From the IMG/VR virus record IMGVR_UViG_3300045450_000055, positions 1 to 64,000 of that record: 64,000 nucleotides of DNA. One strand, 5' to 3'. Below, in pieces: positions 3-35,964 of the stretch. Every line of letters begins with the position of its first letter. Position 1 is the first letter of the stretch. The stretch comes from a virus. Position numbers and translations under genes: made by a program. Below the pieces are notes generated by a model. The model ran no database searches, had not been told where the DNA came from, and saw only the letters and a list, made by a program, of their open reading frames with translations.

Positions 3-326
3 GAGAAAGCGGCCAAGGTTCGTGAGTTCATCCTCGCGGCTCTGGAACGTCCAGAGTTCAAGTTGCTCGACCCTGAGCAGGACATCTCGTCGGTCGGCCA
101 CATTAATTACGTCGGCCAGAACCTGACCAAGGAAGCGTTCCTCGACGGACGACCGGTGACCATCATCGGCGGCTACGATATCTTCCGTGGCGGTATCCCG
201 TACGGCGACGAGCGGTACAACAAGTTCATCGTCAAGGACGGCGACGAGGAACGACTCGTCGAGCCCAAGCTGCTGCGTTTCCCGCTCAACCTCAACCCGG
301 TTGACGCACCGGAAGATTCGTCCTAA
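3..326 (+). CDS. hypothetical protein, C-terminal part (5' end outside window)
   Basis: frame open from nt 3; tail equals track ORF 63..326. Confidence 0.6.
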   Translation, partial: EKAAKVREFILAALERPEFKLLDPEQDISSVGHINYVGQNLTKEAFLDGRPVTIIGGYDIFRGGIPYGDERYNKFIVKDGDEERLVEPKLLRFPLNLNPVDAPEDSS

Positions 327-364
327 TATCAAATCAACGCAAACGAATCGGAAGGAGACGCCAC
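301..364 (+). promoter_or_regulatory. class A promoter-leader cassette 1
   Basis: TTGACG-N17(caccGGAAGATTCGTCC)-TAATAT, then ..ACGAATCGGAAGGAGAC leader/RBS before TTG 365. Confidence 0.6.
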
Positions 365-874
365 TTGAAGACCGCCATACAGAAGACGCACCGCTTCCTC
401 TGGTGTCTCGCCATGCACTGGTCGCGTTCGCCGGCTCTCCCTTACCGCGCTCGTGGGTGGGTTCTCCGTCGTCTGGGCATTTCCCTACCCAAGGATGGGA
501 AGATCAACCACGGGTCCGTCGTCGGGTCGCATCTTGTGACCTTCGGGAAGTATTTCCAGTCCAATATCGATTGCCATTTCGATGGATCGGCGGCGCTTAC
601 CTTCGGAGATTACGTCACGGTCGGAGCCGGCGCACGTTTCGTCACCGGTACGCATCCAATCGGACTCGCCTATCGACGCCGGGGCTGGGAAGAGAAGCCG
701 AACCCCATCAAGGTCGGCGACGGCGCGTGGATCGGCTGCGGTGCCATCATTCAGGCCGACGTGGCGGCGGGCTGCATCATTGCAGCAGGTGCGATCGTCA
801 CGAAACCAACGGAGCCCAACGGGCTCTATGCAGGAGCGCCGGCCCGGCGCATCCGCGATCTCGGGGAAGAATAA
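365..874 (+). CDS. hexapeptide-repeat (LbH) acetyltransferase, maltose/galactoside O-acetyltransferase-like
   Basis: TTG start after GGAGAC; hexapeptide turns ..VGDGAWIGCGAIIQADVAAGCIIAAGAIV.. Confidence 0.75.
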   Translation: MKTAIQKTHRFLWCLAMHWSRSPALPYRARGWVLRRLGISLPKDGKINHGSVVGSHLVTFGKYFQSNIDCHFDGSAALTFGDYVTVGAGARFVTGTHPIGLAYRRRGWEEKPNPIKVGDGAWIGCGAIIQADVAAGCIIAAGAIVTKPTEPNGLYAGAPARRIRDLGEE

Positions 875-1290
875 TGTTCGAGCTTATCGAGCCCAAGATG
901 TGGGCATCTCACCTTCTCCGCGAGAAAGCGGAGGCCAACATCGCGGCTGGTTACCCCGGTGCTGCCATCGACCAATATCGGAAGGTAGGCATGAACGAAT
1001 GTGAGTCCACGCTCGACGACACGTTCGCCAGCGCCACGCTCCGCGACAAGCTCTGGCAGATCGACGAGCGTCAGCAGCAGGCCCGTCGCCGGATCGCGGC
1101 AAACCGGCGGTTGCAGGCGCGGATGGCTACGGAGAAGGTCTTCGACTCCAAGCTCGACCGACGCTACATCGCGCAGCACACCCACGAAGATGAGGGTATC
1201 ATCATGGGCCTCGAACGCCTGTGGTGCGTCCTGTCCGACACGTATCCGGAGTACGTCTGGGAAGACGCTATCAAGGGAGGGCACCGTTGA
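874..1290 (+). CDS. hypothetical protein
   Basis: internal ATG of track ORF 187..1290; TAATG overlap with upstream stop. Confidence 0.65.
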   Translation: MFELIEPKMWASHLLREKAEANIAAGYPGAAIDQYRKVGMNECESTLDDTFASATLRDKLWQIDERQQQARRRIAANRRLQARMATEKVFDSKLDRRYIAQHTHEDEGIIMGLERLWCVLSDTYPEYVWEDAIKGGHR

Positions 1291-1499
1291 GGTATGGTAT
1301 CAATGTGTACGACGGTCGTCAGTACGAGATCGTACCAGCCAGTTCACTTCACTTCGAGACGTATCCCAGTCGTGAGGCGGCGTTAAACGCTTATATCGCT
1401 TCCCTTATCGAGGAGCGGAACATAATCAACGCCGTCATCAAGTCGGCGCAGAAGAAGCAGCGTCGCTGGGACGCACGAACCGAACGTAGGGGCTGCTGA
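1287..1499 (+). CDS. hypothetical protein
   Basis: TTG start 6 nt after AGGGAGG; overlaps upstream stop; tail of track ORF 1221..1499. Confidence 0.55.
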   Translation: MRYGINVYDGRQYEIVPASSLHFETYPSREAALNAYIASLIEERNIINAVIKSAQKKQRRWDARTERRGC

Positions 1500-1753
1500 T
1501 GGCTGATGACCACATGTACCGCGACGACACCGGCACTAAGATCGGCATTAACGATCGCGTCAGGGTCGTTCACGTCATGAACGCCCACACCATCGGCCGG
1601 GAAGGGATCACCGTAGGTCTGGGAAAGATGGACGAGCGGTACGGTATCCCGAACGAGGATAACGTCCTGTACGTTCGTCTTGACGGCGAAACCTCGCTGT
1701 ACGAGGTGTACCCCAGCCGCGTCCGGATCATCGCCAAGGGAGGAAACGCATGA
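1499..1753 (+). CDS. hypothetical protein
   Basis: track ORF; ATGA-type coupling. Confidence 0.65.
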   Translation: MADDHMYRDDTGTKIGINDRVRVVHVMNAHTIGREGITVGLGKMDERYGIPNEDNVLYVRLDGETSLYEVYPSRVRIIAKGGNA

Positions 1754-1929
1754 ACCACGTCCAGTTCATCGGCGATCGATATGGAGACCTGCTGGGCGAG
1801 GCCACGGTCGCTACGGTCCCGGCGGTAGGTGATATGGTCGCTGGCCTTCCACGCTTCGGCGGCCGGGTGAAATCGCGGGCCTTTAACGTCAAGGATGACC
1901 GCTGGACGGTGGTGATCGCCGATGTCTGA
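1750..1929 (+). CDS. hypothetical small protein (59 aa, below track cutoff)
   Basis: hand-translated MNHVQFIGDRYGDLL..; AGGGAGGA RBS; ATGA overlap with upstream stop. Confidence 0.5.
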   Translation: MNHVQFIGDRYGDLLGEATVATVPAVGDMVAGLPRFGGRVKSRAFNVKDDRWTVVIADV

Positions 1930-1935
1930 TATCGC

Positions 1936-2403
1936 ATGTCTGGTGTTCGGTATAGGTGCGGCGTTGCTCATCGATCGTTTCGTCTTCGGGCGCTGGCTCT
2001 GGCAGAGTCGGCGATAATGCCTGTCTATCATGGCAAGCCGCCCTATCTGGAGTGTTCATCAGCCGGTGACAAGCGGTTCTCTGCGTTCTTTGCAAGAGTA
2101 AAGTCGCACGGCAACGCTACGATCGAAGAAGTATACCAAGGCGCAAAGGAGTTCCGCAACGCAGACGGCTCCAAGTCATCTGGCTATTCTGTCAAGGAAG
2201 CCAAGGGTCATCGCCCCGCGAACTATCGAGAAATTACCAATCTGTACTCTCACCTCTGGGACGACTACATGATGGAGAACCCTCATCTTCTAGTTGTCCT
2301 CAAGCAGGTGACGGGCCTGTCGGATCGATTCGGCCGCCCCGGATCAGTGTGTCAGGCGACGGAGCTTTGGCGTATTCGCAATTCATGGATGCTTGACGCT
2401 TAG
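1936..2403 (+). CDS. hypothetical protein (alternative start 2017)
   Basis: track ORF; conserved-looking core PPYLECSSAGDKRFSAFFARV. Confidence 0.6.
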   Translation: MSGVRYRCGVAHRSFRLRALALAESAIMPVYHGKPPYLECSSAGDKRFSAFFARVKSHGNATIEEVYQGAKEFRNADGSKSSGYSVKEAKGHRPANYREITNLYSHLWDDYMMENPHLLVVLKQVTGLSDRFGRPGSVCQATELWRIRNSWMLDA

Positions 2404-2453
2404 GAAGATTCGTCCTATCTCCAGATCAACGCAAGCGAATCGGGAGACACGCA
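2393..2453 (+). promoter_or_regulatory. class A promoter-leader cassette 2
   Basis: TTGACG-N17(cttAGGAAGATTCGTCC)-TATCTC; leader GCGAATCGGGAGAC before GTG 2454. Confidence 0.6.
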
Positions 2454-3524: not shown

Positions 3525-3799
3525 CGAAGGTCTCTTACGATCAGGCGTACTCAGATCACCGGTATCTCTGGGAGACCTACGGCCCGGCGGACGACATGAC
3601 CGGAGGTTACGTCGATAGCCATGATCTCGATCGCCTGCTCAAGTCTCCAACTAAGGCAACCGCTCGCGATTGTCTGGTGGATCAGATCAACTACTGGTTT
3701 GAGACCGGCCCGGACTCGATGGGACACCTGCCGATCGATCCGGACGACGCGGTTCTGATCGACATCGCCGACCGCTACGGATACCAAATTCCAGATTGA
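3521..3799 (+). CDS. hypothetical protein
   Basis: track ORF; ATGA overlap. Confidence 0.65.
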   Translation: MTKVSYDQAYSDHRYLWETYGPADDMTGGYVDSHDLDRLLKSPTKATARDCLVDQINYWFETGPDSMGHLPIDPDDAVLIDIADRYGYQIPD

Positions 3800-3874
3800 C
3801 CTACCGGAAGATTCGTCCTAATTCATCTCCAATGCCAGCGAATCACCGCCGGCCTGATTACAGGAGGATCGTAG
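3796..3874 (+). promoter_or_regulatory. class A promoter-leader cassette 3
   Basis: TTGACC-N17(taccGGAAGATTCGTCC)-TAATTC; leader GCGAATC.. then AGGAGG RBS. Confidence 0.55.
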
Positions 3875-4222: not shown

Positions 4223-4449
4223 GCGTCCGCAACAAAGCCACCGGCCAGAGCATCCAGCAGACGGAGGAGAAGGCAATCGCCGAGATGAAGGCTACCGGCT
4301 TCACCGAGCATCGTGGTTACTGGTTCGAACAGACGCATGAGCGCGGCCGTCCCGTCGTCTATGTGTGGAACAGCCTGTACATCATCTGCCGCGTCGCTGA
4401 CGACATGGATGATGCGAAGAACTGGGTATCTTGGGTGCTTGACGGATAG
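4219..4449 (+). CDS. hypothetical protein
   Basis: internal ATG of track ORF 4189..4449; ATGA overlap. Confidence 0.6.
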   Translation: MSVRNKATGQSIQQTEEKAIAEMKATGFTEHRGYWFEQTHERGRPVVYVWNSLYIICRVADDMDDAKNWVSWVLDG

Positions 4450-4501
4450 GAAGAATAATCCTATCCACAATCATCGACAACGAATCGGAGGGAGACCCGA
4501 T
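4439..4501 (+). promoter_or_regulatory. class A promoter-leader cassette 4 (AATAA spacer variant)
   Basis: TTGACG-N17(gATAGGAAGAATAATCC)-TATCCA; leader ACGAATCGGAGGGAGAC. Confidence 0.6.
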
Positions 4502-8658: not shown

Positions 8659-8985
8659 ATGAAGCAAATCACCATCACGGACGACACGTTTCATCGTCAC
8701 ATGGCAGATTCGGATCGTCCGGTACTGCTTGTCTTCAAGGCGAGCTTTTGTGGCCCGTCTGCAATGATCGACCCATTTCTTGACCAGATCATCGAAGACT
8801 ATGGTGACGACATCATACTCGCCGAGGTCGATGTCGAGAATTGTCCCAAAGTCACGAGGGAATTACAGGTGAAAGGCACCCCGTCTTTCATCGTCATGAA
8901 CCTTGGTGTACCGCTGGGCAGTCGTATCGGCACCTCGACTTATGAGGAACTTGCTGGGTGGTTGGATAAGCATCTCGCCACTTGA
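8659..8985 (+). CDS. thioredoxin-fold protein with monothiol CGPS motif
   Basis: ..VLLVFKASFCGPSAMIDP.. where thioredoxins have WCGPC; ..GTPSFIV.. cis-Pro region. Confidence 0.65.
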   Translation: MKQITITDDTFHRHMADSDRPVLLVFKASFCGPSAMIDPFLDQIIEDYGDDIILAEVDVENCPKVTRELQVKGTPSFIVMNLGVPLGSRIGTSTYEELAGWLDKHLAT

Positions 8986-9039
8986 CACCAAGGAAGATTT
9001 GTCCTACCCGATTTGTGTAACAACGAATCGGGAGACACC
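8982..9039 (+). promoter_or_regulatory. class A promoter-leader cassette 5
   Basis: TTGACA-N17(ccaAGGAAGATTTGTCC)-TACCCG; leader ACGAATCGGGAGAC. Confidence 0.6.
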
Positions 9040-9723
9040 ATGTCACGCTACGAAGAACCGGTCACCGTACCTCGCAAAGGTCCCGGTGGTGACGACAGCA
9101 CCGAAACCTCACATCCAGCGTTTGCACAGATCGGCGTGAGCCGCGTCAGCGGGCAAATTAACCTGCTGGACAGTGAGTTCGCTCACAACGCTTACATGGT
9201 TGTGCGGATCACTCCCACCACCCTGATGCGTAACCTGTCCCGAGACTGGTTCTTCGGCGGGCGGGTCCCTTACATCGAAGTCGCGATGTCGGAGTCGCAG
9301 TGGGCGACATTCGTCTCTTCGCCCAACATCGGCGACGGCGCTCCCTGCACTGTTCAGTATCTCAACGGCCAGCCGGTCCCACAGATACCTCGCATCACCG
9401 ATCGTAAGTCGCAGTTCCGTAACGAAGTGGCGAAGGACCTCGAAGAGATGGTCGCCGCAACCGACGAACTCTCCGAACTTATCGATAGCCTTGGGCTACC
9501 AAAAGGCAAGGCAGCCTTGCTCAAGAACAAGGCCACTTTCATCCGCAGGACGCTCACCGGCAGCATCCCGTTCGTCGCCGAGCAATTCGACGAACACATG
9601 GAGAACGCGGTCGAGAACGCCAAGCAGGAAATTCATGGCTATATGGGCGGCGTCCTCCAGCGAGCCGGTCTCGAAGCCATCACCGGCGGCGCGCTCCCTC
9701 TCCAGATCGAAAGCAAGGGATGA
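9040..9723 (+). CDS. hypothetical protein
   Basis: ATG after GGGAGAC; tail of track ORF 9013..9723. Confidence 0.7.
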   Translation: MSRYEEPVTVPRKGPGGDDSTETSHPAFAQIGVSRVSGQINLLDSEFAHNAYMVVRITPTTLMRNLSRDWFFGGRVPYIEVAMSESQWATFVSSPNIGDGAPCTVQYLNGQPVPQIPRITDRKSQFRNEVAKDLEEMVAATDELSELIDSLGLPKGKAALLKNKATFIRRTLTGSIPFVAEQFDEHMENAVENAKQEIHGYMGGVLQRAGLEAITGGALPLQIESKG

Positions 9724-10046: not shown

Positions 10047-10219
10047 TGGGCGGCCGGGCACCGTATCGATCCAAGCGGGCTGCAAAGCGACGCATCCGGG
10101 CAATGCTCCACGCCCAAGGACTAGGCCCCCGCGACCCGGCCCGTAGAAAGGTGGTTGACCAACAGGAAGATTCGTCCTACACCACCGACATCGAAAGCGA
10201 ATCGGGAGACACGTTGTGA
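10046..10219 (+). CDS. possible small basic protein (57 aa), reads through cassette 6
   Basis: TGATG coupling, but ORF spans a promoter cassette; may be spurious. Confidence 0.3.
   Translation: MGGRAPYRSKRAAKRRIRAMLHAQGLGPRDPARRKVVDQQEDSSYTTDIESESGDTL
10155..10215 (+). promoter_or_regulatory. class A promoter-leader cassette 6
   Basis: TTGACC-N17(aacAGGAAGATTCGTCC)-TACACC; leader GCGAATCGGGAGAC. Confidence 0.6.
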
Positions 10220-11824: not shown

Positions 11825-12168
11825 TGCGGCCTGTGTCCTATCCATCGGAACCGGAAGAAGAGATCGCGTGCGCCGCGAATCGATATCCCGACATTGGGGT
11901 ATTTCCGCTACCCGCACCTGCCCGGCATCATCACATCATGTGGACATACCTCATGATTTTCGGCAGCGGCGCGAACAGATGCGAGCAAGGCTTCCTTACT
12001 ACCAAGGGTCGCTTTGTCGATCGCATCGAAGGTCTGCGGATCGCTCAGGCGGCCGATCAGCTACTGGAGAAATGCGGCGACCCCACCCGCCTGTTCTCCG
12101 AGGACCTATGGCCTACCCCACCCGAAGCGGCGATGTATTCGATCGTTAAACTCGACGAAGACGATTGA
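11824..12168 (+). CDS. hypothetical protein
   Basis: track ORF; TAATG coupling. Confidence 0.6.
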   Translation: MRPVSYPSEPEEEIACAANRYPDIGVFPLPAPARHHHIMWTYLMIFGSGANRCEQGFLTTKGRFVDRIEGLRIAQAADQLLEKCGDPTRLFSEDLWPTPPEAAMYSIVKLDEDD

Positions 12169-12226
12169 CGACCCGGAAGATTCATCCTACTACAAGCCAT
12201 CAGCAGCGAATCAGGGAGACCAGCTA
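12165..12226 (+). promoter_or_regulatory. class A promoter-leader cassette 7
   Basis: TTGACG-N17(acccGGAAGATTCATCC)-TACTAC; leader GCGAATCAGGGAGAC. Confidence 0.6.
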
Positions 12227-16558: not shown

Positions 16559-17029
16559 ATGAAATGTTCGACCATCATGCGAGGCGAACTCAAGGGCTGG
16601 GAGACAGGTCCCAAGCTCAAGCGTGGCGAACCAGCCCTCAAGGCATATCGCTGCCCGGCCGGCGTCTGGACCATCGGCTGGGGTGCAACCGGCAAGGGCA
16701 TCACAGCCAAGTCGGTAGTGACCCGTGACTGGTGCGAGAAGCGGTTCGACGCCGACCTGATGTACTTCGAGCATGGCGTCGAGCGCCTGTTGAAGGGGCA
16801 CCCGGCGACCCAAGGCCAGTTCGACGCCTTGGTGAGCTTCGCCTATAACTGCGGTCTCGACGAAGATGCCGACACCAAGGCGGAAGGTCTGGGAGACAGC
16901 ACATTGCTCCGACTGCATTTGGCCGGAGATTACGCCGGTGCTGCTGCCGAGTTCGGCAAGTGGACCAGCGGCGGTATGGCCGGTCTCGTCTCTCGTCGCG
17001 CTGTCGAGAAGCGTTTCTATTTGTCCTAA
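16559..17029 (+). CDS. GH24 phage lysozyme (endolysin)
   Basis: ..KAYRCPAGVWTIGWGATG......FDALVSFAYNCG.. lysozyme core; Cys at the usual Asp position. Confidence 0.8.
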   Translation: MKCSTIMRGELKGWETGPKLKRGEPALKAYRCPAGVWTIGWGATGKGITAKSVVTRDWCEKRFDADLMYFEHGVERLLKGHPATQGQFDALVSFAYNCGLDEDADTKAEGLGDSTLLRLHLAGDYAGAAAEFGKWTSGGMAGLVSRRAVEKRFYLS

Positions 17030-17057
17030 TAGGGCAGTTAAACTAACGGTGAGACCA

Positions 17058-18317
17058 GTGTCGCTATTTTCATTTATCACGACGCAAGTGCAAAGCAATC
17101 AGATCGCTCAAGCCGCTATCATGGCAGGTCCGGCGACGGCACTGGCTTACTCTGCCAAAGCACTTCCGCTTAAACTTCTTCGAGGAGCAAAGAAGCTCGT
17201 AAGCGTTGATGTGCGTTTCAACAGCGACATGGCGGATTTTGAAGCCGTACTCCGCTTCGTAACGAACAACGTAGTCAAGGATGCGTTCAGCAGGAACTTC
17301 GTCTACACGACGGAGAGCAAGTGGGACACCGAAGACTATGAGATGGTTCACAAGCACCATGGCCTGACCGCGGGCTATGGCACTCACTTGGGCTTCTTCA
17401 ACCGACATCCTGTGCTGGTTGATCGATTTCTCGACGACGGCAACAACACCGAAAAGTTCAAAGAGCATCTGGTGGTGACGTTCTTCACCCGCTCCAAGCG
17501 CGTGGTCCGTGAGTTCTCGACAGAGGTAGCGAAGGCGGCGGGTAATAATATCGAGAGCTTCGAGAGCGTTCCTGTCCATGTCAATGGTGGGAACTACTGG
17601 GACCGGATGGGGAAGCTGCCCCTACGACGAATGAATACCGTCCTTACGTCTGACAATGCTGGTGAGAAGCTGGTTGCATCCATCCGAGAGTTTGAGGGCC
17701 GTAAAGAGGAGGACCATCGTCTTGGCTTGCCGCATCACTTCGGTGCCATGCTTCACTCCGAACCGGGCTGCGGGAAGTCGAGCCTGATCCACGCCGTTGC
17801 TTCGGAACTGGAGCGCTCCATCTATTATCTGAACATGGGGTCACTGGAGAAGGACCGCGATCTCCTGAACCTGCTCAACGGCCGCAACGACTGGTCACGT
17901 ATCCTGCTCGCGATCGAAGACTTCGACGCAGCCGGCGTCGATGTATCCAAGCGCACCGACGACGAACCAGACACGATCGAGTGCGACGAAGGGGTTGTTG
18001 TCCTCCCCCAGCCCGCCAAGCCTGCGAAGAAGTCGCCCATCACGCTCAGCGCGCTCCTCAACGTCTTGGACGGCATCCTCTGTCCGGATGGTCTCGTTGT
18101 CATCGCGACGACCAATCATCACGATAAGCTCGATCCGGCCATCACTCGTCCGGGCCGGTTCGATCAGACGTTCCGTCTTGGCAAGCTGAATTACCGCGGC
18201 TTCGTCCAAATGTGCGAGTTGTTCGGCAAGCGGCCCAGCGACTTCCCTCAGATCGGAGAGGATGTCTTGATGACCGGTGCCGAGATGCGTGCCGTTATCA
18301 TGGGAGCTTCGGCATGA
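17058..18317 (+). CDS. BCS1-like AAA+ ATPase
   Basis: Walker A EPGCGKSS, Walker B LLAIEDFD, ..ATTNHHDKLDPAITRPGRFD..; GTG start after GGTGAGAC (alt ATG 17121). Confidence 0.75.
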   Translation: MSLFSFITTQVQSNQIAQAAIMAGPATALAYSAKALPLKLLRGAKKLVSVDVRFNSDMADFEAVLRFVTNNVVKDAFSRNFVYTTESKWDTEDYEMVHKHHGLTAGYGTHLGFFNRHPVLVDRFLDDGNNTEKFKEHLVVTFFTRSKRVVREFSTEVAKAAGNNIESFESVPVHVNGGNYWDRMGKLPLRRMNTVLTSDNAGEKLVASIREFEGRKEEDHRLGLPHHFGAMLHSEPGCGKSSLIHAVASELERSIYYLNMGSLEKDRDLLNLLNGRNDWSRILLAIEDFDAAGVDVSKRTDDEPDTIECDEGVVVLPQPAKPAKKSPITLSALLNVLDGILCPDGLVVIATTNHHDKLDPAITRPGRFDQTFRLGKLNYRGFVQMCELFGKRPSDFPQIGEDVLMTGAEMRAVIMGASA

Positions 18318-19150: not shown

Positions 19151-19179
19151 TTGACAGCCACAGGCGTCGCCGCTAGTTT
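19151..19179 (+). promoter_or_regulatory. class B promoter
   Basis: TTGACA-N17-TAGTTT (GCTAGTTT). Confidence 0.5.
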
Positions 19180-19221
19180 GGCTAGGCACTCAATAGAGTG
19201 CGACTGTCAAAGGAGACAACC

Positions 19222-19555: not shown

Positions 19556-19614
19556 TTGACATACAGGATGATTCTTCCTATTGCCGGACCAGCAAAACGA
19601 ATCGGGAGACGCTT
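19556..19614 (+). promoter_or_regulatory. class A promoter-leader cassette 8 (diverged spacer)
   Basis: TTGACA-N17(tacAGGATGATTCTTCC)-TATTGC; leader ACGAATCGGGAGAC. Confidence 0.6.
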
Positions 19615-22364: not shown

Positions 22365-22781
22365 ATGAACACCGAAGACCCGCTCATCCTGTACGTCCTG
22401 ATGAGGACGGACCTGCCCGACTATCAGGCCGGCAAGAGCATGGCGCAAGCCAATCACGCCGGCACCCGCTTCATGCGGGACATGGCGAAGCTCTCCGCCG
22501 ACCACCTCCGTCTCCTTCGCAGCTACAACGAATGGCTCCAGCAGGCGGATGGCTTTGGTACGTGTATTGTACTGGGCGTGACCCGTGCCGAGCTTCACCA
22601 GCGCTTGGCGACAGGTGCCGGGAGTGTGGAGCGTATATCCGGCCTAATCCATGACCCCACTTATCCTATCCGGGACGGAAATCAGGTTCTTACTCTTCCG
22701 ATCGACACCTGCGGTTACGTTTTTGGAAGAAAGTCGGCGTGCTACTGGGCGACGACGGGATTACACCTCTTCCGGGATTGA
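22365..22781 (+). CDS. peptidyl-tRNA hydrolase, PTH2 family
   Basis: LILYVLMRTDLPDYQAGKSMAQANHAG.. = v-v-R-x-DL-x4-GK-x-AQ-x-HA motif; C-terminal ..TGLHLF. Confidence 0.65.
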   Translation: MNTEDPLILYVLMRTDLPDYQAGKSMAQANHAGTRFMRDMAKLSADHLRLLRSYNEWLQQADGFGTCIVLGVTRAELHQRLATGAGSVERISGLIHDPTYPIRDGNQVLTLPIDTCGYVFGRKSACYWATTGLHLFRD

Positions 22782-22836
22782 CTAACCGGAAGAATAATCC
22801 TACCACAATCGTATCGAAACGAATCGGGAGACAGTC
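22778..22836 (+). promoter_or_regulatory. class A promoter-leader cassette 9 (AATAA variant)
   Basis: TTGACT-N17(aaccGGAAGAATAATCC)-TACCAC; leader ACGAATCGGGAGAC. Confidence 0.6.
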
Positions 22837-23861: not shown

Positions 23862-23921
23862 TTGACGGGTAGGAAGAATAATCCTACCCGTATCTCAGCA
23901 ACAACGAATCGGGAGACAGAC
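23862..23921 (+). promoter_or_regulatory. class A promoter-leader cassette 10 (AATAA variant)
   Basis: TTGACG-N17(gGTAGGAAGAATAATCC)-TACCCG; leader ACGAATCGGGAGAC. Confidence 0.6.
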
Positions 23922-26388: not shown

Positions 26389-27453
26389 ATGCACGACGTT
26401 TTCTGTTTCGCGCTCCGTGGACGCCCCTACGGCCCGCAGCACGAGTTCAACATCCTGCAAGGGCTGGAGATCGCCCAGTACGGGTTCATCTTTATCGGTT
26501 CGGCCGAAGAGCCGATCAACTTCCGCAATGCGTTCACGGCTGCGGAAGTGGCGCAGATGATCCGCGGCTCGCTGACCGCAGCCCAGAACGATCGCATCTT
26601 CATCTTCGCAGTCGAGGATCAAGACAGCGATCCTCAGTGGGCGACCCTGATCCAGCGCCTCACGGCCGAGACCGCAGCCACCCTGTCGCTCGGGCACCCG
26701 CCCCGCGTCACGTTGGTCGGACACGCCAAGGACCATTCGTCCTATTACCTCAAGCTGTTCCCGCAATGGGAATCGTACAATACGCCCAACTTCGGCAACA
26801 ACATGTCGGCGACGGACCTGCGTCACGCGCTCTACAACGCGACCGATCCCATGACCGAACTCAGCGTGATCCATGCACGCGATCGTCTTCCGATCGGCAC
26901 CTTCACTTTCCTGCGCCAGTGGGTCCGGTCGCCGGCCTTCGAGAGGATGCGGGACGAGTATCTGTTCAACGTCAAGGAGGACGCCAAGTACGGCCCCCAC
27001 CCTTATCGTCAGGTGCATATCCACGCGACCGCCGACTACTGCCTGATGCAGTCAGGCGCGGTGCTGCTGGTCCGGCGCGGCGAGATGCCGGGTAAGGGAC
27101 AGTGGGCGCTTCCGGGCGGCCACATTGGTGACCATGAGCGGTTCCGCGACGCTGCTGTCCGTGAACTGTGTGAGGAGACCTCGATCCTCGAACTCAACAG
27201 CACGCTGGACAAGGGCGACCTGTACGCTGCGATCAAGGCAGAGAAGGTGTACGACGATCCGTGGCGTTCGACCCGGATGCGGACCATCGACATGGCCTAT
27301 GGCGGCATCCTTCACCGGACCACGCGTCCGCTGGTCGAAGGCACCGACGACGCCGAAGCGGCGCGGTGGTGGAACCTCGACGAGGTGGTGCGCTCCATGA
27401 TGTTCGAGGATCATTACAATATGATCCAATTCTTCTCTCAGACTCTGCGCTAA
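26389..27453 (+). CDS. NMN adenylyltransferase-like / Nudix hydrolase fusion (NadM-Nudix type)
   Basis: TAGGAGGA RBS; C-terminal Nudix box GGHIGDHERFRDAAVRELCEETS; N-terminal domain has RGRPYGPQHEFN where NadM has GRFQPxHxGH. Confidence 0.65.
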   Translation: MHDVFCFALRGRPYGPQHEFNILQGLEIAQYGFIFIGSAEEPINFRNAFTAAEVAQMIRGSLTAAQNDRIFIFAVEDQDSDPQWATLIQRLTAETAATLSLGHPPRVTLVGHAKDHSSYYLKLFPQWESYNTPNFGNNMSATDLRHALYNATDPMTELSVIHARDRLPIGTFTFLRQWVRSPAFERMRDEYLFNVKEDAKYGPHPYRQVHIHATADYCLMQSGAVLLVRRGEMPGKGQWALPGGHIGDHERFRDAAVRELCEETSILELNSTLDKGDLYAAIKAEKVYDDPWRSTRMRTIDMAYGGILHRTTRPLVEGTDDAEAARWWNLDEVVRSMMFEDHYNMIQFFSQTLR

Positions 27454-27464
27454 GGGGCGTCACC

Positions 27465-28961
27465 ATGCAGTTCTACGACGATATCGGCGACCTCCTTCGC
27501 CAGCCGATCATGAACAAGGATACGTACAAGGCCAGTCACTGGACCTTCGAACATCCTGAGTTCACTTCCACATACGGATACATCGAAGCCCGCAAGGGTG
27601 GCGAGTTCAATGAGGTGATGTGGTTCGGTAACCTCTATACGCTGCGTTACTTCCTGACGCAGCGCTGGACGCCGGCCTTCATCGACCACGCCGCGGTCTT
27701 CCTGCCGCTGCACGGCGTACCGTTCGATCGCAAGGCCGCGATGGTCGTGTGGGAGAAGTATGACGGCCGCCTGCCTGTGCGGGTCAGCCAGCTTCCGGAA
27801 GGCATCGTCGTGCCGCAAGGCACCGTCCTGTCCACGGTCGAGTCGCTCGATGAGGAGTGCGCCGGTCTGGCGATTACCATCGAGACCCTACTGTTGCGCT
27901 GCTGGTTGCCGACGACGCTGGCGACCCGCGGGATGCGCTGGTGGCGGCTGATCGAAGAATATCTGGAGATCAGCGGCACGCCCGGCACTGCCGAGTTCAA
28001 GGTCGTCGATTTTTCGGCTCGCGGCTGCCGCTCCACCGAAGATGCCGGTATCTCCGGCATGGCTCATCTGGTCAACTTCAAGGTGACCGACAACCTGATG
28101 GGCATCCTCTTCGGCCAGCATACCTACCGGACCGACGAGATGCTGGGATACTCGATCCCGGCGACCGAACACTCGGTCACCACGTCGTGGGGACGGGACC
28201 GCGAGCAGGCGTTCTTCGAACACATCCTCGAAGTCCACGGCCAGTCTATCAACCCGCTGGGTGGGCGCTACCCGGTATCGGTGGTGATCGACACCTACGA
28301 TCAGGACGAAGCGATCAAGATGTGGTTGACGCCGGCTGACAAGGGCGGATGTGGGCTGCTGGAGAAGCTGATCGCGTCGAACATGAAGCTGGTGCTTCGC
28401 CCCGACTCTGGTGATCCCATCATCAACGTCGTCCATGTTCTCGATCTGGTCGAGAGTCTTGTCGGCTCGACGAACAACGCCAAGGGCTTCCGGATGCTCC
28501 CGGACTTCGTGGCGGTCATTCAGGGCGACGGTATCAACGAGGACAGCCTGCGGCGTATCCTCCAGCGCGTCACCTACCACAAGTGGTCGATCGACAACCT
28601 GACGTTCGGCTCGGGCGGCGGCCTGATGATGCACGAGGTCGAGCGCGACACTCACCGCTTTGCCATGAAGGCGTCGGAGGTAATCGTGGGCGGCGTCACC
28701 AGCGCCATCCAGAAGACGGTTAAGACCGACCCGTCGAAGGCATCGAAGGCTGGTCGCTTCGCGGTGGTTCGCCGGGAGGTTCCGCACTTCCCGGAGCCCT
28801 ATATCGACTTCGTGACGATCGCAGAAGCCGACCTGCTGCCGGGCGAACTCAACTGGCTCCAGCCGGTGTTCGAGCATGGTGAACTTCTCGAACCGGCGCA
28901 GACCTTCGAGGATGTCCGGGTGAACGCCGCCTACTGGCGCAACCAGACGCGTCCCGCCTGA
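27465..28961 (+). CDS. nadV: nicotinamide phosphoribosyltransferase (NAMPT/NadV)
   Basis: ~500 aa; ..DTYKASHW.., ..DFSARG.., ..SIPATEHS.., ..RPDSGDP.., ..GDGI.., ..FGSGGGL.. NAMPT-type motifs. Confidence 0.85.
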   Translation: MQFYDDIGDLLRQPIMNKDTYKASHWTFEHPEFTSTYGYIEARKGGEFNEVMWFGNLYTLRYFLTQRWTPAFIDHAAVFLPLHGVPFDRKAAMVVWEKYDGRLPVRVSQLPEGIVVPQGTVLSTVESLDEECAGLAITIETLLLRCWLPTTLATRGMRWWRLIEEYLEISGTPGTAEFKVVDFSARGCRSTEDAGISGMAHLVNFKVTDNLMGILFGQHTYRTDEMLGYSIPATEHSVTTSWGRDREQAFFEHILEVHGQSINPLGGRYPVSVVIDTYDQDEAIKMWLTPADKGGCGLLEKLIASNMKLVLRPDSGDPIINVVHVLDLVESLVGSTNNAKGFRMLPDFVAVIQGDGINEDSLRRILQRVTYHKWSIDNLTFGSGGGLMMHEVERDTHRFAMKASEVIVGGVTSAIQKTVKTDPSKASKAGRFAVVRREVPHFPEPYIDFVTIAEADLLPGELNWLQPVFEHGELLEPAQTFEDVRVNAAYWRNQTRPA

Positions 28962-29024: not shown

Positions 29025-29702
29025 GTGGGCATTGCTCAGCGCGAGATGATGGGAGACGTTATGCGTGTCCTGCACGAGGTAGGCGCTGTACCCATCGACA
29101 AAGGTTACGATGGCGGTGGGCATCAAACCATCACCTTCGATTACAACCAGAAACGTACAACCTTCCATTACCCCTGCACCGGCAGGATGAATGGCAACAG
29201 TCGGCGTAACGTCATCGCCCGCCTTCGCCGCATCATCCGAGAGATACCGGAACCGACAGCACCGGTGGTGACATCACTCCCACCGCTCCCCGTCCAACCT
29301 GTCTCCCTGATGCTGGCTCCAGCGCCGCCCCCACCAACGCCGCCAGACCCAAAGCGTATGACGGCTGAACGGCGACGGGAGCTTGCCAAGTTCTACCTGA
29401 CGCATCCCCTCGTCGAGACCGCGGGCCGGTTCAACGTCACGCCCGACAAGGCACGCGAGATCATCTTGTCGCAACGCGGCCAAGCCGCCGACAAGCTGAA
29501 ACGCGAGGCTAACGTCGCCCGGATGGAAGCCGCTCGACGTACCCGCCCGGTGCCGAGCCCACCACCGCCTCCGCCCATCACTCGGCAAGAGCGCAATCGG
29601 CGGATCAAGGACTTGTACCTGAACTCGACGACAACGCTCAAAGAGATCGGTCGTCGATTTGGTGTATCGATCTCGACGGCATGGCGGATAGCGCGGCGAT
29701 GA
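29025..29702 (+). CDS. DNA-binding protein with two HTH-like modules and Pro-rich linkers
   Basis: ..LVETAGRFNVTPDKAREII.. and ..LKEIGRRFGVSISTAWRIARR (sigma region 4 / resolvase-HTH-like). Confidence 0.5.
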   Translation: MGIAQREMMGDVMRVLHEVGAVPIDKGYDGGGHQTITFDYNQKRTTFHYPCTGRMNGNSRRNVIARLRRIIREIPEPTAPVVTSLPPLPVQPVSLMLAPAPPPPTPPDPKRMTAERRRELAKFYLTHPLVETAGRFNVTPDKAREIILSQRGQAADKLKREANVARMEAARRTRPVPSPPPPPPITRQERNRRIKDLYLNSTTTLKEIGRRFGVSISTAWRIARR

Positions 29703-31172: not shown

Positions 31173-31201
31173 TTGACTAACCCCGCGAATCGCCCTAGAC
31201 C
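31173..31201 (+). promoter_or_regulatory. class B promoter of the VWA-TerB-TerC operon
   Basis: TTGACT-N17-TAGACC; preceded by CAAGCTCTA..TAGAGCTTG inverted repeat. Confidence 0.5.
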
Positions 31202-31240
31202 GCAGTTCTCGACAACGAGACACACCGAAAAGGAGACATC

Positions 31241-31840
31241 ATGACTGCACTTACCCCGGAAACCGCTTCCGAGTTCGACTTTCTTGCGCTGATCGACGCG
31301 TCGGGTTCGATGAACAACCCCTCGCTGCGTTTCCCCGGCAAGACGCGCTGGCAGGAACAGCAGGAGTCGGTCACCGGCCTCGCGTTCGCGCTGGAGAAGT
31401 TCGATGCCGATGGTATCGACGTGGTGGCGTTCGGCCCCGGCGTCGATGTCGAGGAGGGCGTGACCGGTGCCGCGGTGCCGGCGCTGTTCGCTCGCCGTGG
31501 TCCGCGCGGCTCGACCCCGCTGGCCCCTGCGTTGCAGGTCGTCATCGACAAGCAGAAGCGTACCGGCAAGAAGACGGTCGCCGTGATCTACACGGACGGC
31601 GCTCCGGACAATCCCGATCTCGTCGTCAAGACGATCACGGATGCCTCGAACGCGCTGTCGGCCGACGATGAACTGACCTTCCTGTTCATTCAGGTCGGCG
31701 ACGATCCCGATGCGCGCCGCTTCCTCGACCACCTCGACGACAAGCTCACCGGCAAGTTCGACATCGTGGATGTCGTGTCGGTGGCCGACGCGGACAATCT
31801 GGAGCCGCTGGAACTCATCACCAAGGCCATCGCCGACTAA
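31241..31840 (+). CDS. von Willebrand factor A domain protein (TerY-like)
   Basis: MIDAS LIDASGSM; ..GSTPLAPAL.., ..VIYTDGAPD.. Confidence 0.7.
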   Translation: MTALTPETASEFDFLALIDASGSMNNPSLRFPGKTRWQEQQESVTGLAFALEKFDADGIDVVAFGPGVDVEEGVTGAAVPALFARRGPRGSTPLAPALQVVIDKQKRTGKKTVAVIYTDGAPDNPDLVVKTITDASNALSADDELTFLFIQVGDDPDARRFLDHLDDKLTGKFDIVDVVSVADADNLEPLELITKAIAD

Positions 31841-31909
31841 TCATCGGCTTCAACCACCACACGGAGGCGGCGGGGACATCCCCGCCGCCTTAGCGGGAGA
31901 CAAGAATAC

Positions 31910-32350
31910 ATGTTCGGAAAACTCATGGGTCTGGGTAAGACCCTCATGGCCGACGCCGACAAGGCACTCGGCCGCATCACGTCCAAGCCGACGCTGGTCC
32001 GCGTCTGCCAAGCGTCGTACCTGATCGCCGCGGCGGACGACAACTTCTCCGACGCGGAGAAGGAAATGCTCCAGAAGGTCGTGCAGCGCAAGCTCCCCGG
32101 CTTCAAGATGGCCGAGATCGCTGGCGCAATCGATGCAGCCGTCGATGAACTCGCGTTCAGCAAGGTCGCCGGCAAGCGCAACCTGCTGGCGAATATCGAG
32201 GAAGCGGCCGGCACCGATCAGGCTGACATCATCATGCTCGCCGTCCTCGCCGTCGCCAACGCGGACAACGAGTTCGCCGATGTGGAGAAGGCGGTCGCCC
32301 GCGAAATCTGCATGAAGCTGCGGCTTCCGCTCCGGGAGTATGAGCTTTGA
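31910..32350 (+). CDS. TerB-like helical protein
   Basis: two ..AADDNFSDAEKEML.. / ..ANADNEFADVEKAVA.. repeats typical of TerB-type modules. Confidence 0.45.
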   Translation: MFGKLMGLGKTLMADADKALGRITSKPTLVRVCQASYLIAAADDNFSDAEKEMLQKVVQRKLPGFKMAEIAGAIDAAVDELAFSKVAGKRNLLANIEEAAGTDQADIIMLAVLAVANADNEFADVEKAVAREICMKLRLPLREYEL

Positions 32351-32970
32351 TCGCGGACTTCATCAATCAGGTCGTGAGCGACCCGTGGGTCCTGCTCCAG
32401 ATCATCATGCTCGATATCGTGCTGTCCGGCGACAACGCCGTCATCATCGGCGCGCTGACGGCATCCCTGCCGGCCCATCAACGCAACAAGGCGCTGATCT
32501 TCGGCACGCTCGCCGCGGTCATCATGCGGGTCGTCCTGTCGGCGCTCGCCATCTACGTCCTCAAGATTCCCGGCATCCTCGTCATCGGTGCTTTGCTGCT
32601 GGCCTATATCGGCGTCAAGCTGACACGCGATCTGCTGGACAACCACAAGGCCGATGGCTCGACCGAGAAGGTGGCGGTCACTGGCACGTTCGCTTCCGCG
32701 ATCTGGGCTATTGCCGTGGCCGATTTCTCGATGAGCTTGGACAACGTGGTCGCCGTCGCTGGCGCTGCCCACAACGTCCCGGTCATGGTGTTCGGCCTGA
32801 TGCTCTCGATCGTCCTGATGGCGGTCGCCGCCAAGGGCGTCTCGAAGCTGATCGAGCGCTACTCGTGGATCGCATGGATCGGTGTCGTGCTGATCTTCTA
32901 TATCGCCGGCAAGATGCTCTACGAGGGCGTCCCGATCGCGATCACGCAATTCAACCACCTGTTCGGCTAA
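32347..32970 (+). CDS. TerC-family integral membrane protein
   Basis: ..LDIVLSGDNAVIIG.. and ..DFSMSLDNVVAVAG.. paired TerC motifs; about 7 hydrophobic helices. Confidence 0.8.
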   Translation: MIADFINQVVSDPWVLLQIIMLDIVLSGDNAVIIGALTASLPAHQRNKALIFGTLAAVIMRVVLSALAIYVLKIPGILVIGALLLAYIGVKLTRDLLDNHKADGSTEKVAVTGTFASAIWAIAVADFSMSLDNVVAVAGAAHNVPVMVFGLMLSIVLMAVAAKGVSKLIERYSWIAWIGVVLIFYIAGKMLYEGVPIAITQFNHLFG

Positions 32971-32978
32971 GCCGGTGA

Positions 32979-33014: not shown

Positions 33015-33074
33015 TTGACGAACAGGAAGATTCGTCCTATCCCCAATTCAACAACGCGAATCGGGAGACAGACG
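33015..33074 (+). promoter_or_regulatory. class A promoter-leader cassette 11
   Basis: TTGACG-N17(aacAGGAAGATTCGTCC)-TATCCC; leader GCGAATCGGGAGAC. Confidence 0.6.
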
Positions 33075-34019: not shown

Positions 34020-34029
34020 AAGGAGACGT

Positions 34030-34350
34030 ATGACAGTAAACGACGTGGAGATCGAGTTTGGAATGGGCGTGGTGGCTCTTGTCGCCGGCTATTCCGATGC
34101 GATCCAGAACGGGCGTACCGACGCTGACATCTTGGATTACCTCAAGGGAGAGGTAACCGAACTGGAAGAGGAGATCACCGCGGACGATCCGGGCGAGGAT
34201 GGTATCTTCGGGGAAGCTATCGATGTCATGGTCAACTGCATCGATCTCATTCGCCGCCAGTATCCCAACGCCACGATGTCGGAGTTGGAACACATGGTGA
34301 AGATGTACGCAGCCAAGAAATGTGACAAATGGAACAGGAGGTACGGATGA
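34030..34350 (+). CDS. possible MazG-like all-alpha NTP pyrophosphohydrolase
   Basis: AAAGGAGAC RBS; LKGEVTELEEEI...GEAIDVMVNCIDLI resembles the MazG ExxE..D pattern. Confidence 0.4.
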   Translation: MTVNDVEIEFGMGVVALVAGYSDAIQNGRTDADILDYLKGEVTELEEEITADDPGEDGIFGEAIDVMVNCIDLIRRQYPNATMSELEHMVKMYAAKKCDKWNRRYG

Positions 34351-34628
34351 ACAAGATCGTCGAAAGTATTCTGAGCGCTTCGGTGATTACCGGTATTGTC
34401 GCAGCTACGGTAGAGCCGGCGTCGGCTCAGCGCTACCGCTCTCGCGAGACGACCAGCACCCGGCAGACCTATCGCGACATCATTCGATCGGGGCGTACCG
34501 AACGCCGGGTGACCGAGAACCGCCGGCTTCGCGATCGGCAGCAGCGTAACGCCGAAGACCGGGCGCGTCGGTGGGGCCGGGATCGGGACGCCGACAGCTA
34601 TTCGATGGACTCGATCGATGAGGATTGA
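34347..34628 (+). CDS. secreted basic protein with Sec-type signal peptide
   Basis: MNKIVESILSASVITGIVAATVEPASA-QRY; AGGAGG RBS. Confidence 0.6.
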   Translation: MNKIVESILSASVITGIVAATVEPASAQRYRSRETTSTRQTYRDIIRSGRTERRVTENRRLRDRQQRNAEDRARRWGRDRDADSYSMDSIDED

Positions 34629-34629
34629 A

Positions 34630-34869
34630 ATGCCTCTCAAACGCTGGTGGCAGGACCTCGCCGCATATTGCGCCGCGGCGCGTAGGCCGTACAGCGGGGT
34701 CGCGAGCATGGTGGTCTGCAACCCTGATGGGCTGGAGATACTGAAAGTCGATACCTACACCGGGCGGACCATCATTCGGCACCACCCGGACATGGTAATA
34801 GTGTACGGCGACGGGCCGTTGGTCGATCCAGAGGCAGTTGACTCACCGGAAGATTCATCCTACCGGTGA
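34630..34869 (+). CDS. hypothetical protein (alt start 34618)
   Basis: track ORF 34618..34869. Confidence 0.55.
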   Translation: MPLKRWWQDLAAYCAAARRPYSGVASMVVCNPDGLEILKVDTYTGRTIIRHHPDMVIVYGDGPLVDPEAVDSPEDSSYR

Positions 34870-34893
34870 TTCGTTATCGAGGGAGACAGACAA
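34838..34893 (+). promoter_or_regulatory. class A promoter-leader cassette 12
   Basis: TTGACT-N17(caccGGAAGATTCATCC)-TACCGG; leader GATTCGTTATCGAGGGAGAC. Confidence 0.55.
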
Positions 34894-35550
34894 ATGGCAA
34901 TCACCAAGGCAAACTACGACCGCTTCGTCGCGATCCGCAACAACTCGCTGATCCATTCCAACCTCCAGTTTTCCGCCGACGCCAGCACGGCTGGCATCGA
35001 AGGCTGGCGGCTCTCGGATGTCGAGAAGCAGGACGACGGTTCCTACATCTGGCAGACCCCGTATGGGATGCTGATCGAAGAGGGCGGCGTCCTGCGTCTG
35101 TGTTCGTTCAAGCCGACACCGGCGGAGTGGGCGATCATCAAGGACGTGGCGTTCCGCGGGCACGACACCCAGACCAAGGCGATCACCAGCCCGGCAGGTG
35201 TCCGTCTGGAGCTTCGGATGAGCATCAATACCGAAGACAGCAGCTTGCCGCGTAGCCTCAACATGCTCATCACGGCCGGTACGCGGGGCGACCTCAACGA
35301 CGTTGACCTGTACGACTGCTCCGATGCCTATACTGACGCTTTCCGGCAAGGCGTACCGTTGACGAAGGAAGGCGACGGCATCTTCGACTTCTACATTTAC
35401 AACCGCTACGATCGCGACGGTGATCTGGCCGGTAATGTTCTGGTCAGGGTTACAGGAGGCAAGATGTCGCACATCTGGATCGAGGGCGGCAAGAACTGGT
35501 CGTGGACGCCGGAAGGCGACATCCAGCCGGTCGCGGGGAGGGGACGCTGA
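34894..35550 (+). CDS. hypothetical protein
   Basis: track ORF. Confidence 0.7.
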   Translation: MAITKANYDRFVAIRNNSLIHSNLQFSADASTAGIEGWRLSDVEKQDDGSYIWQTPYGMLIEEGGVLRLCSFKPTPAEWAIIKDVAFRGHDTQTKAITSPAGVRLELRMSINTEDSSLPRSLNMLITAGTRGDLNDVDLYDCSDAYTDAFRQGVPLTKEGDGIFDFYIYNRYDRDGDLAGNVLVRVTGGKMSHIWIEGGKNWSWTPEGDIQPVAGRGR

Positions 35551-35903
35551 TGGCACGCTCAGTTAGCTGCCTGATCGATGTTCATCACGCTATCAAGGCG
35601 GGTGAGGTGGGTCACAAGAAAGTCGAGCGCCTGCTGATATTGCACGGGCGCACCAAGAAGACCGACGACGAGTTGGTCGAATACTGGGGACTTCGGGGAT
35701 CGATCGGCAAGGCAGCAAGCCGTCCTGACGACGCTGACGGATCAGCGGCCGTGAACGAGCTTCTGAACACCTACGACGGCCTTGAGTGGAGTCGGGGCGT
35801 CACGCTACCAGCGTCGATCGAGGTGAGGGAACACAAGAAGGACCTGTTCTGGGTTCTTCGCACACGGCTTGCCAACGATATCGAAGCCCACAACGCCGCT
35901 TGA
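35550..35903 (+). CDS. hypothetical protein
   Basis: TGATG coupling; tail of track ORF 35502..35903. Confidence 0.6.
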   Translation: MARSVSCLIDVHHAIKAGEVGHKKVERLLILHGRTKKTDDELVEYWGLRGSIGKAASRPDDADGSAAVNELLNTYDGLEWSRGVTLPASIEVREHKKDLFWVLRTRLANDIEAHNAA

Positions 35904-35964
35904 CGAACCGGAAGAATCGTCCTACACCACCTTCATCAACAACGACTCGGAGGGAGACCCGTTC
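35900..35964 (+). promoter_or_regulatory. class A promoter-leader cassette 13
   Basis: TTGACG-N17(aaccGGAAGAATCGTCC)-TACACC; leader ACGACTCGGAGGGAGAC. Confidence 0.6.

Follow-up and report, generated by a model that had tools for sequence, protein, structure and literature searches.

Thirteen copies of one promoter-leader cassette

We analyzed the first 64,000 nucleotides of the IMG/VR virus record IMGVR_UViG_3300045450_000055 (hereafter the window), together with ~0.5 kb to its left and 10 kb to its right, out of the 163,497 bp of the source record. The window comes from a phage of Sphingomonadales that is large, new, virulent and phiCbK/Lacusarx-like. Synteny with the Sphingobium phage Lacusarx, a phiCbK-like siphovirus, covers the helicase, the tRNA block, the primase-like gene and RtcB, and goes on through an extended "miscellaneous" block of small genes, NAMPT among them. 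All copies of the element studied here lie in this block. The element is a cassette of about 60 bp, made of a promoter and a leader, in which the spacer between the -35 and -10 hexamers is nearly invariant. To judge from its sequence, this spacer is most likely a palindromic operator for a dimeric phage regulator, and the word operator is used below in that putative sense.

The original prediction, made from the letters of the window, placed copies at 301, 2393, 3796, 4439, 8982, 10155, 12165, 19556, 22778, 23862, 33015, 34838 and 35900. A search with the pattern TTGACNNNNNGGAAGANTNNTCCTA, allowing up to 3 mismatches, returned exactly these 13 sites, all on the + strand and spanning 301-35924, with no mismatch in 12 copies and one in copy 19556. 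The chance expectation for the pattern, estimated on shuffled sequences, was 0.12, and 0 of 100 shuffles reached 13. A position weight matrix trained on the 13 copies and scanned over the window confirmed the positions: the copies scored 40-59 bits, the next + strand site 0.4 and the best - strand site 11. This gap indicates that the cassettes form a discrete class, with no weak members in the window. Outside it, a short-read contig has copy 4439 at its end, while its beginning (L050, 1-31) falls within a leader of the same sequence as the leader of this copy, which points to a 14th cassette ~0.5 kb left of window position 1. Cassette repeats break short-read (de Bruijn) assemblies.

The copies follow one layout, which supports their description as promoter-plus-leader units. 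TTGAC is invariant (13/13), the spacer measures 17 bp, and T24 and A25 are invariant while the weight matrix shows the next four bases to be unconserved, as expected from the earlier view that the -10 is reduced to TA. Across copies, only TTGAC, GGAAGA-W-T, TCC and TA are invariant; a C occupies the -7 equivalent in 8/13 copies. A conserved CA at cassette positions 35-36, present in nine copies, is the sole pointer to the start site. All 13 cassettes begin 56-79 nt upstream of the start of an open reading frame, and a GGAG-type ribosome-binding site precedes that start by 4-7 nt in every copy, copy 3796 having a longer leader and a different ribosome site. The leader box CGAATCGGGAGAC is exact in seven copies and recognizable in five more; copy 34838 lacks it and carries TGATTCG after the -10 instead. 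The spacer consensus proposed earlier stood for the core but not for two copies, since position 19 is T in copy 8982 (GATTTG) and the core of copy 19556 is flipped. Six sub-variants were counted where two (ATTCG and AATAA) had been proposed: ATTCG in five copies, AATAA in three, ATTCA in two, and ATTTG, ATTCT and AATCG in one each. The cassette is built of three separable modules, namely the promoter hexamers, the operator and GATTCG-type boxes.

The Caulobacter RpoD consensus is TTGaCgS / GCtANAWC (PMC8144410). The hexamers and the 17-bp spacer of the cassettes conform to the alpha-proteobacterial RpoD pattern (-35 TTGAC(N), 16-18 bp, CTAnnn-type -10), and reading the -10 as alpha-proteobacterial (xCTA) is therefore reasonable. 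The C found instead of G at -14 is accounted for by the TCC of the operator. Since the hexamers fit this pattern, the promoters should fire on host polymerase alone. A scan of the window for E. coli-type promoters recovered one of the 13 cassettes, and fewer sites than in shuffles.

All cassettes are on the + strand. In cassette 1 (301..364), the -35 TTGACG lies at 301-306, the operator GGAAGATTCGTCC at 311-323 and the -10 TAATAT at 324-329, followed by the predicted start (~336), the leader box CGAATCG (344-350) and a gene from 365. The operator of cassette 2 (2393..2453, gene from 2454) lies at 2403-2415 and extends to TAGGA..TCCTA with 7/8 dyad pairs; the leader box is again CGAATCG. Cassette 3 (3796..3874, gene from 3875) is a longer unit of 79 nt, with an operator at 3806-3818, a leader box CGAATCA and a separate AGGAGG ribosome site. 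The operator GGAAGAATAATCC is shared by cassette 4 (4439..4501, operator 4449-4461, gene from 4502), where it sits in an 8-bp-arm palindrome GGATAGGA..TCCTATCC, and cassette 9 (22778..22836, operator 22788-22800, gene from 22837). Cassette 10 (23862..23921, gene from 23922) also has its operator (23872-23884) inside a palindrome, GGGTAGGA..TCCTACCC. Cassette 5 (8982..9039, gene from 9040) has the operator GGAAGATTTGTCC at 8992-9004, whose right half TTGTCC is of the type found in phages L02 and RXM (see below). Cassettes 6 (10155..10215, operator 10165-10177, gene from 10216) and 7 (12165..12226, operator GGAAGATTCATCC at 12175-12187, gene from 12227) come next, and then cassette 8 (19556..19614, gene from 19615), which has the flipped operator (19566-19578) and a terminator-like hairpin upstream. 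A terminator, GGGAGCCTCCGGGCTCCCTTTTT, also lies upstream of cassette 11 (33015..33074, operator 33025-33037, gene from 33075). In cassette 12 (34838..34893, operator 34848-34860, gene from 34894), the TGATTCG occupies cassette positions 30-36. Cassette 13 (35900..35964, operator GGAAGAATCGTCC at 35910-35922, gene from 35965) has the leader box variant CGACTCG, in which GANTC is retained.

The spacer core is palindromic and occurs in both orientations

Over 83 copies, a dyad centred on cassette position 17 had 4.4 of 6 pairs complementary, and no other centre exceeded 3.0. The palindrome takes the form GGAnGA-W-TCnTCC and measures 13-17 bp, a subclass extending to TAGGA...TCCTA. The original prediction had described a partial dyad, TAGGA-N7-TCCTA, as a possible dimer operator. 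The dimer operator stood, but the dyad was understated, as the symmetry continues through the centre. Positions 14 and 20 mark the orientation of the site and covary (AG in 54 copies, AA in 22, CT in 2, TT in 2).

In copy 19556, the core is reversed within an unchanged promoter frame, GGATGATTCTTCC being the reverse complement of GGAAGAATCATCC; flipped cores were found in this window copy and in three relatives. In the cassettes the operator occupies ~-26 to -14; the promoter of the candidate regulator described below has it at ~-35 to -23. Because the element occurs in both orientations and in two registers, it behaves as a protein-binding site and not as a directional polymerase contact. The earlier proposal of an operator for a dimeric phage regulator gains support from the palindrome, from these two orientations and the second register, from a perfect version in a distant relative and from its presence on the promoter of a conserved helix-turn-helix (HTH) gene. 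The other proposal, a contact site for a sigma appropriator, finds no support in the sequence: the -35 is a perfect TTGAC, so that no replacement is needed. As TTGAC is invariant in all copies and in the relatives, we rejected sigma appropriation of the T4 MotA/AsiA type.

We also considered the RNA level. A hairpin between spacer and leader (GATTCG/CGAATC) had been suggested for read-through transcripts. When the 13 read-through RNAs were folded, z-scores ranged from -3.9 to +1.7 with a median near 0, that is, no better than shuffles, and the suggested pairing was in the best fold of only 2/13. This hairpin was therefore rejected. Stable folds were few, and each consisted of the operator palindrome itself or of a hairpin private to copy 8982. 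The latter (8982-9042; CCCGAUUUGUG...CGAAUCGGG, -19 kcal/mol, z = -3.6) would pair the first part of the ribosome-binding site. An Rfam scan returned only tRNAs and the tmRNA, with no known RNA family in the leaders, and terminator-like hairpins lie upstream of only two of the 13 copies, 19556 and 33015.

A small HTH protein is the candidate regulator

The minus-strand core noticed earlier at 41109-41136 is real and conserved in relatives, and it was the key lead to an operon with an HTH gene. The promoter, TTGACA-N16-TATGTC (41136-41109, - strand), carries the operator over its -35 and upstream spacer: TGACAAATCTTCC agrees with the reverse-complement form of the core, GGACAAATCTTCC, at 12/13 positions. 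Just upstream lies a terminator (~41139-41155, - strand). The first gene of the operon encodes a phosphoesterase (40115..40837, - strand; phrog_547, E = 2e-43) with conserved synteny in phage XM05. It is followed by the gene of an 81-aa XRE/Cro-type HTH protein (39870..40115, - strand), whose start codon overlaps the phosphoesterase stop (ATGA). The arrangement of terminator, promoter and operator recurs in the metagenomic relatives L024, L015, L010 and L039 and in XM05, and the reversed operator is found on the HTH-operon promoter of phage RXM as well. In all, the 81-aa protein is encoded downstream of an operator-bearing promoter in the window, XM05, RXM and four metagenomic relatives.

The HTH family comprises 33 homologs of 63-99 aa, all on large phage contigs, none with a Pfam domain and without PHROG assignment. 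Its putative recognition helix, S-x-G-R-A-(T/C)-R-R-W-E, is invariant across the family. The predicted structure of the 81-aa protein is a five-helix XRE/Cro fold with a predicted local distance difference test (pLDDT) score of 92. The nearest solved structures are HigA2, the MqsA C-domain, Aca1/2/10, C.Csp231I and P22 c2, with TM-scores up to 0.76 and weak E-values; all are small autoregulators that bind operators as dimers. By sequence, the protein's best PDB match was Aca3 (E = 0.22). Among sequenced phages, the protein was found only in phages of Sphingomonadales. We consider it the most likely candidate for the operator-binding repressor, a cognate role predicted from these comparisons.

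The gene at 29025-29702, which the original prediction had put forward as a regulator, is a weaker candidate: HTH motifs are present, but identity in relatives is 26-29%. This + strand gene encodes a protein of 225 aa with a proline-rich linker and two HTH repeats resembling sigma region 4/HTH_23, with weak Pfam/PHROG matches (late transcriptional activator / repressor), and may specify a second regulator.

Operator and HTH protein change together in related phages

None of the relatives compared is the same phage. DNA identity was 65-76%, and this in conserved genes only, yet the motif is exactly kept. A scan of IMG/VR with the exact pattern found the motif in 45 loci, with up to ~17 distinct copies recovered from a single large contig. 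In contrast, a slightly tightened motif had one chance-level match only in 185,579 bacterial and archaeal genomes (596 Gb). The motif is thus neither a host promoter class nor prophage-borne, and host-promoter mimicry and prophage origin were rejected on this basis. The published papers on these phages that we examined do not describe the motif. It is a clean metagenomic marker of the phage lineage.

We then compared operators with HTH proteins. In XM05 (HTH protein 77% identical), the operator is of the window type, with a reversed operator before the phosphoesterase-HTH operon. In vB_EliS-L02 (L02; 55% identical), it reads TTGAC-N5-GGA(C/A/T)AAWTTGTCCTA, i.e., the GGAnAAWTTGTCC type. In Citromicrobium phage RXM (39% identical), the recognition helix is altered to SSKGKTLTRWM; four copies read TTGAC-N3-TAGGACAAATTGTCCTA, where TAGGACAAATTGTCCTA is a perfect 17-bp palindrome, and TTGACAATTTGTCC lies 56 nt before the HTH gene. 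Hence, along the series XM05, L02, RXM, the operator sequence shifts in step with the HTH protein.

The Lacusarx copies (~8) have diverged; they lie within the syntenic block and where the terminal repeat begins, and their operators are more degenerate than those of the window. The Lacusarx gene annotated as "sigA, RNA polymerase sigma factor" (NC_041927.1, 83485-84255) consists of two copies of the small HTH unit and a sigma-70 region 4, region 2 being absent. The fusion has its parallel in the DNA, where the -35 and the operator are juxtaposed at a fixed 5 bp. Taken as a whole, this is a real promoter-operator regulon shared across the lineage; regulons of this general kind are known, but the regulator family is unreported.

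A model for the circuit, and its alternatives

We propose, as a reasonably probable reading of the sequences, that the cassettes are early sigma-70 promoters with a palindromic operator and are shut off by an autoregulated phage repressor of the XRE/Cro type. The model draws on the cassette architecture, the palindrome and its flips, their conservation, the co-distribution with the HTH gene and the protein fold. Host sigma-70/RpoD polymerase would fire the cassettes early through TTGAC, the 17-bp spacer and TA (xCCTA style). Transcription would start at the conserved CA ~7 nt after the -10 and run through an unstructured leader of 23-29 nt and GGAG to the start codon. The small repressor would accumulate after early firing, and a dimer of it would bind GGAnGA-W-TCnTCC at ~-26 to -14. 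It would then shut off all operator-bearing promoters (at least 14) as well as its own, where the same operator over the -35 would give autorepression, with a logic like that of Cro, Aca or C-proteins. This would be the first concrete transcription-control model for the Lacusarx/XM05/RXM group of phiCbK-like phages, for which no promoters or regulators have been described, and it offers a defined operator, a candidate repressor and natural specificity variants (window/XM05, L02, RXM).

Several observations weigh against this model. T at position 19 breaks one dyad pair in many copies, and positions 14/20 are never symmetric. The HTH protein is assigned on circumstantial grounds, namely its position, a distribution that follows that of the motif, and a single co-variation series; co-occurrence with the motif would be expected of any core DNA-binding protein of this lineage, and the candidate search covered the window and its flanks, about half of the 163-kb genome. 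In addition, a protein bound at ~-20 can coexist with polymerase, as MerR and GcrA do (PMC9976885), so that activation is conceivable, and the Lacusarx protein, with its two HTH units joined to sigma region 4, hints at a closer link with polymerase. The last two points would suit an activator: the cassettes would then be middle promoters needing the HTH protein or another phage factor at ~-20, acting, by analogy with MerR- and GcrA-type factors, from the DNA face opposite polymerase. Their -10 is indeed weak by E. coli standards, one cassette in 13 passing the TTGACA/TATAAT scan. However, with a perfect -35, an optimal 17-bp spacer and an xCTA that is a normal alpha-proteobacterial -10, no activator seems needed; moreover, the operator of the HTH operon covers the -35, a classical repression geometry, and the structural neighbours of the HTH protein are repressors or autoregulators. 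We regard an activator acting from the opposite DNA face as the main alternative to the repressor model, but as unlikely.

That the conserved spacer is no operator at all, but a contact for polymerase or sigma (an optimized promoter, a phage sigma or an appropriator) or a relic of duplication or gene conversion, seems very improbable. Phage early promoters can have a consensus that extends beyond the hexamers, as in T4, and movement or homogenization of the cassettes would agree with their location at synteny breaks and with the identity of some leaders. Against this, the core is found in both orientations within one promoter frame and in another register, which directional polymerase contacts disallow; it is palindromic, and perfectly so in RXM; and the -35 is intact, unlike that of appropriated promoters. 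There is no complete sigma factor in the window or in Lacusarx. A phage sigma was rejected, as no sigma domain was found in the window and the Lacusarx "sigA" has region 4 only. Recent copying alone would not suffice either, since the core is kept alongside proteins 39-77% identical while the variable positions are saturated.

GANTC boxes form a separate module

Besides the operator, GANTC sites occur at three fixed registers of the cassette: position 15, at the operator centre, ~29 and 44/45. The boxes at ~29 and 44/45 have the sequence Y-GA-T-TC-G; those behind the -10 are in forward orientation, those in the leader in reverse. In 79 discriminator and leader boxes, Y was kept in 78, K in 75 and the last G in 73, with GA..TC almost invariant; the first position is C or T at ~2:1, and N is T, then G, then A, but never C. 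As for the spacer site, the GAATC variants alone fit YGAKTCK/G, through their bottom strand (CGATTCT / TGATTCT). Taking position 36 as the predicted start, the boxes are centred at -19, ~-5 (a frequent register, ~-5 to -2) and +11/+12. At these three registers stand GAWTC, YGATTCG and CGAATCR (reverse complement YGATTCG), respectively. Whether a copy has the leader box bears no relation to its upstream boxes, which also speaks against the spacer-leader hairpin.

The published element of GcrA is TGATTCG / YGAKTCK (PMC4647560), and GcrA boxes are centred at -20 ± 1 in the spacer, at -30 ± 2 or from +5 to +30, examples being GAATC at -22..-18 in PcsM and at +12 in PmipZ (PMC9976885). GcrA and CcrM are conserved in Alphaproteobacteria (PMC3667746), and their presence in the host is assumed from that. 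By sequence comparison, the Y-GA-K-TC-G boxes appear to be a module separate from the operator, which matches the GcrA element in sequence and, if counted from the predicted start, in two of three positions.

The boxes might be sites that the host CcrM methylates and that GcrA, a cofactor of sigma-70, recognizes. This is a tentative idea, complementary to the repressor model and not exclusive of it. If this doubtful premise holds, transcription would depend on host GcrA and on whether the phage DNA is methylated. The agreement extends to the degenerate positions of the published YGAKTCK element, and the centres at -19 and +11/+12, counted from the predicted start, are at published positions. 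The promoter zones of all five phages compared are enriched 15-25-fold in YGAKTCG (p = 1e-7 to 1e-17), whose registers and orientation there are fixed. It is also present in promoters without an operator: one in the window (31173..31240, + strand; TTGACT-N17-CCTAGA before gene 31241, with CGAATCG in the spacer centred at ~-20), one in L02 (23204) and one in XM05 (16388). Finally, GANTC sites in the spacer and downstream of the -10 exclude one another (p = 2e-5 in a Fisher test; p = 0.0008 by permutation within genomes), and in RXM, whose operator centre has no GANTC, the -5 box is present in 4/4 copies.

Other data speak against a role for GcrA. The spacer GANTC coincides with the palindrome centre; about half of all copies lack it, as do all L02 and RXM operators. 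The -5 register is outside the published GcrA positions. The either/or pattern could reflect descent of cassette lineages and not compensation. GANTC is only mildly depleted genome-wide (observed/expected [O/E] 0.81), and an earlier survey of alpha-phages reported no unusual genome-wide distribution of GcrA sites (PMC9437464). A search with a GcrA probe validated on 75 other phage records found no GcrA gene in the window, in Lacusarx, in the related loci examined or in any sequenced phage of Sphingomonadales. No CcrM-like enzyme was found in these phages. The phage methyltransferase is of the gamma class, and searches of Pfam, NCBIfam and PDB gave no informative match as to its target specificity. 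This gamma-class (NPPY) DNA methyltransferase (L052, 14695-15486) lies ~3 kb right of the window end and is 70% identical to Lacusarx gp064.

If the idea were nevertheless correct, the phage would tie its early programme to the CcrM/GcrA cell-cycle circuit of the host, a link we hold to be possible but doubtful: each early promoter would have at least one methylatable YGAKTCG (at -20 within the operator, at -5 or at +12), and GcrA would boost it only on methylated DNA. The phage could thereby sense the cell-cycle state of the host, or distinguish its genome as injected, which is methylated, from newly made copies, which are unmethylated, and the GcrA input and the Cro-like repressor would make up a two-key early switch. 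It would be a case of a virulent phage reading, at its own promoters, a methylation-based cell-cycle signal of its host.

Cassettes mark the boundaries of gene modules

The genes on either side of a cassette have different fates in relatives. For the homologs of the genes upstream of copies 2393, 8982, 12165 and 22778, a cassette comes next in most relatives, whereas the downstream genes are different or absent; for copies 2393 and 22778, the cassette follows the upstream homolog in 7/8 and 5/5 relatives, respectively. In 8/13 copies, the upstream frame (at least 60 codons) stops at the TGA inside the -35 TTGAC, with no intergenic spacer. TAGGA supplies the stop, TAG, in at most two others (up to 10/13 in total). 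One compact promoter-operator unit thus acts as the boundary of shuffled gene modules.

Parts of this system have known counterparts. By analogy with lambda Cro/CI at PR/PL, Aca and C-proteins, a small HTH dimer would act on a palindrome over a strong early sigma-70 promoter and on its own promoter. Instead of one or two tripartite control regions, this large virulent phage has 14 or more scattered promoters with a single operator each, distributed along more than 36 kb; the operator lies within the -35/-10 spacer, and the -35 hexamer of the autoregulated promoter is itself a half-site. The HTH family is without Pfam or PHROG assignment, and binding and repression are here predictions.

PeSLs are mobile early-promoter/stem-loop cassettes of T4-type phages (PMC2839356, PMC4122927). 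The cassettes resemble them as dispersed early-promoter units of ~60 bp in a hyperplastic region of small ORFans, with gene content switching at the cassette. They differ in that a conserved stem-loop or terminator is absent and the core is a putative protein operator; host and promoter sequence are unrelated, and recombination at the cassettes is suggested by synteny. In Cluster K mycobacteriophages, the start-associated sequence (SAS) is a conserved box of ~13 bp that includes the ribosome-binding site and lies a few bases before many start codons of one genome. The leader box of the window, in contrast, belongs to a promoter unit and keeps a fixed distance to the -35/-10, sequence and host being again unrelated. 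Its CGAATC half is also found inverted upstream of the predicted start, which, as against SAS, suggests a role at the DNA level. Finally, the GcrA/CcrM promoters of Caulobacter (PcsM, PmipZ; PMC4647560, PMC9976885) also have YGAKTCG at ~-20 and ~+12 of a TTGAC/xCTA promoter. In the window, however, the boxes stand before phage genes and not before a cell-cycle gene, an extra register at ~-5 is used, and the -20 site lies inside a palindromic operator that may account for it; neither GcrA nor a CcrM-like enzyme was found in the phage.

Other features of the window

The window has a GC content of 59%. It encodes 28 tRNA genes and a permuted, alpha-proteobacterial-type tmRNA (tag ANDNTVVEMRLAA) at 49457-57803 on the - strand, and this block is syntenic with that of Lacusarx. 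Auxiliary genes lie at 16866-18317, 27261-28961, 31241-32978, 43749-45095 and 53126-53803; the auxiliary products of the window are a BCS1-like AAA ATPase, NAMPT with a NUDIX protein nearby, VWA, TerB and TerC proteins, RtcB and a PEP-CTERM-tagged secreted protein.

Additional sigma-70-type promoters without an operator were noted at 19151-19200 (+ strand) and 59198-59169 (- strand). The latter has a TCCTAG -10 followed by CGAATCA, and a short GGAACTTCC palindrome in its spacer. At 37166-37203 (+ strand), the sequence TTGACA-N17-TAACAC (GCTAAC) places the predicted start at the A of the ATG at 37201, and the gene at 37201-37803 is a candidate for a leaderless mRNA from this promoter. CCNGG is the most under-represented class of palindromic pentamers in the window (O/E 0.63), which may reflect avoidance of a restriction system.

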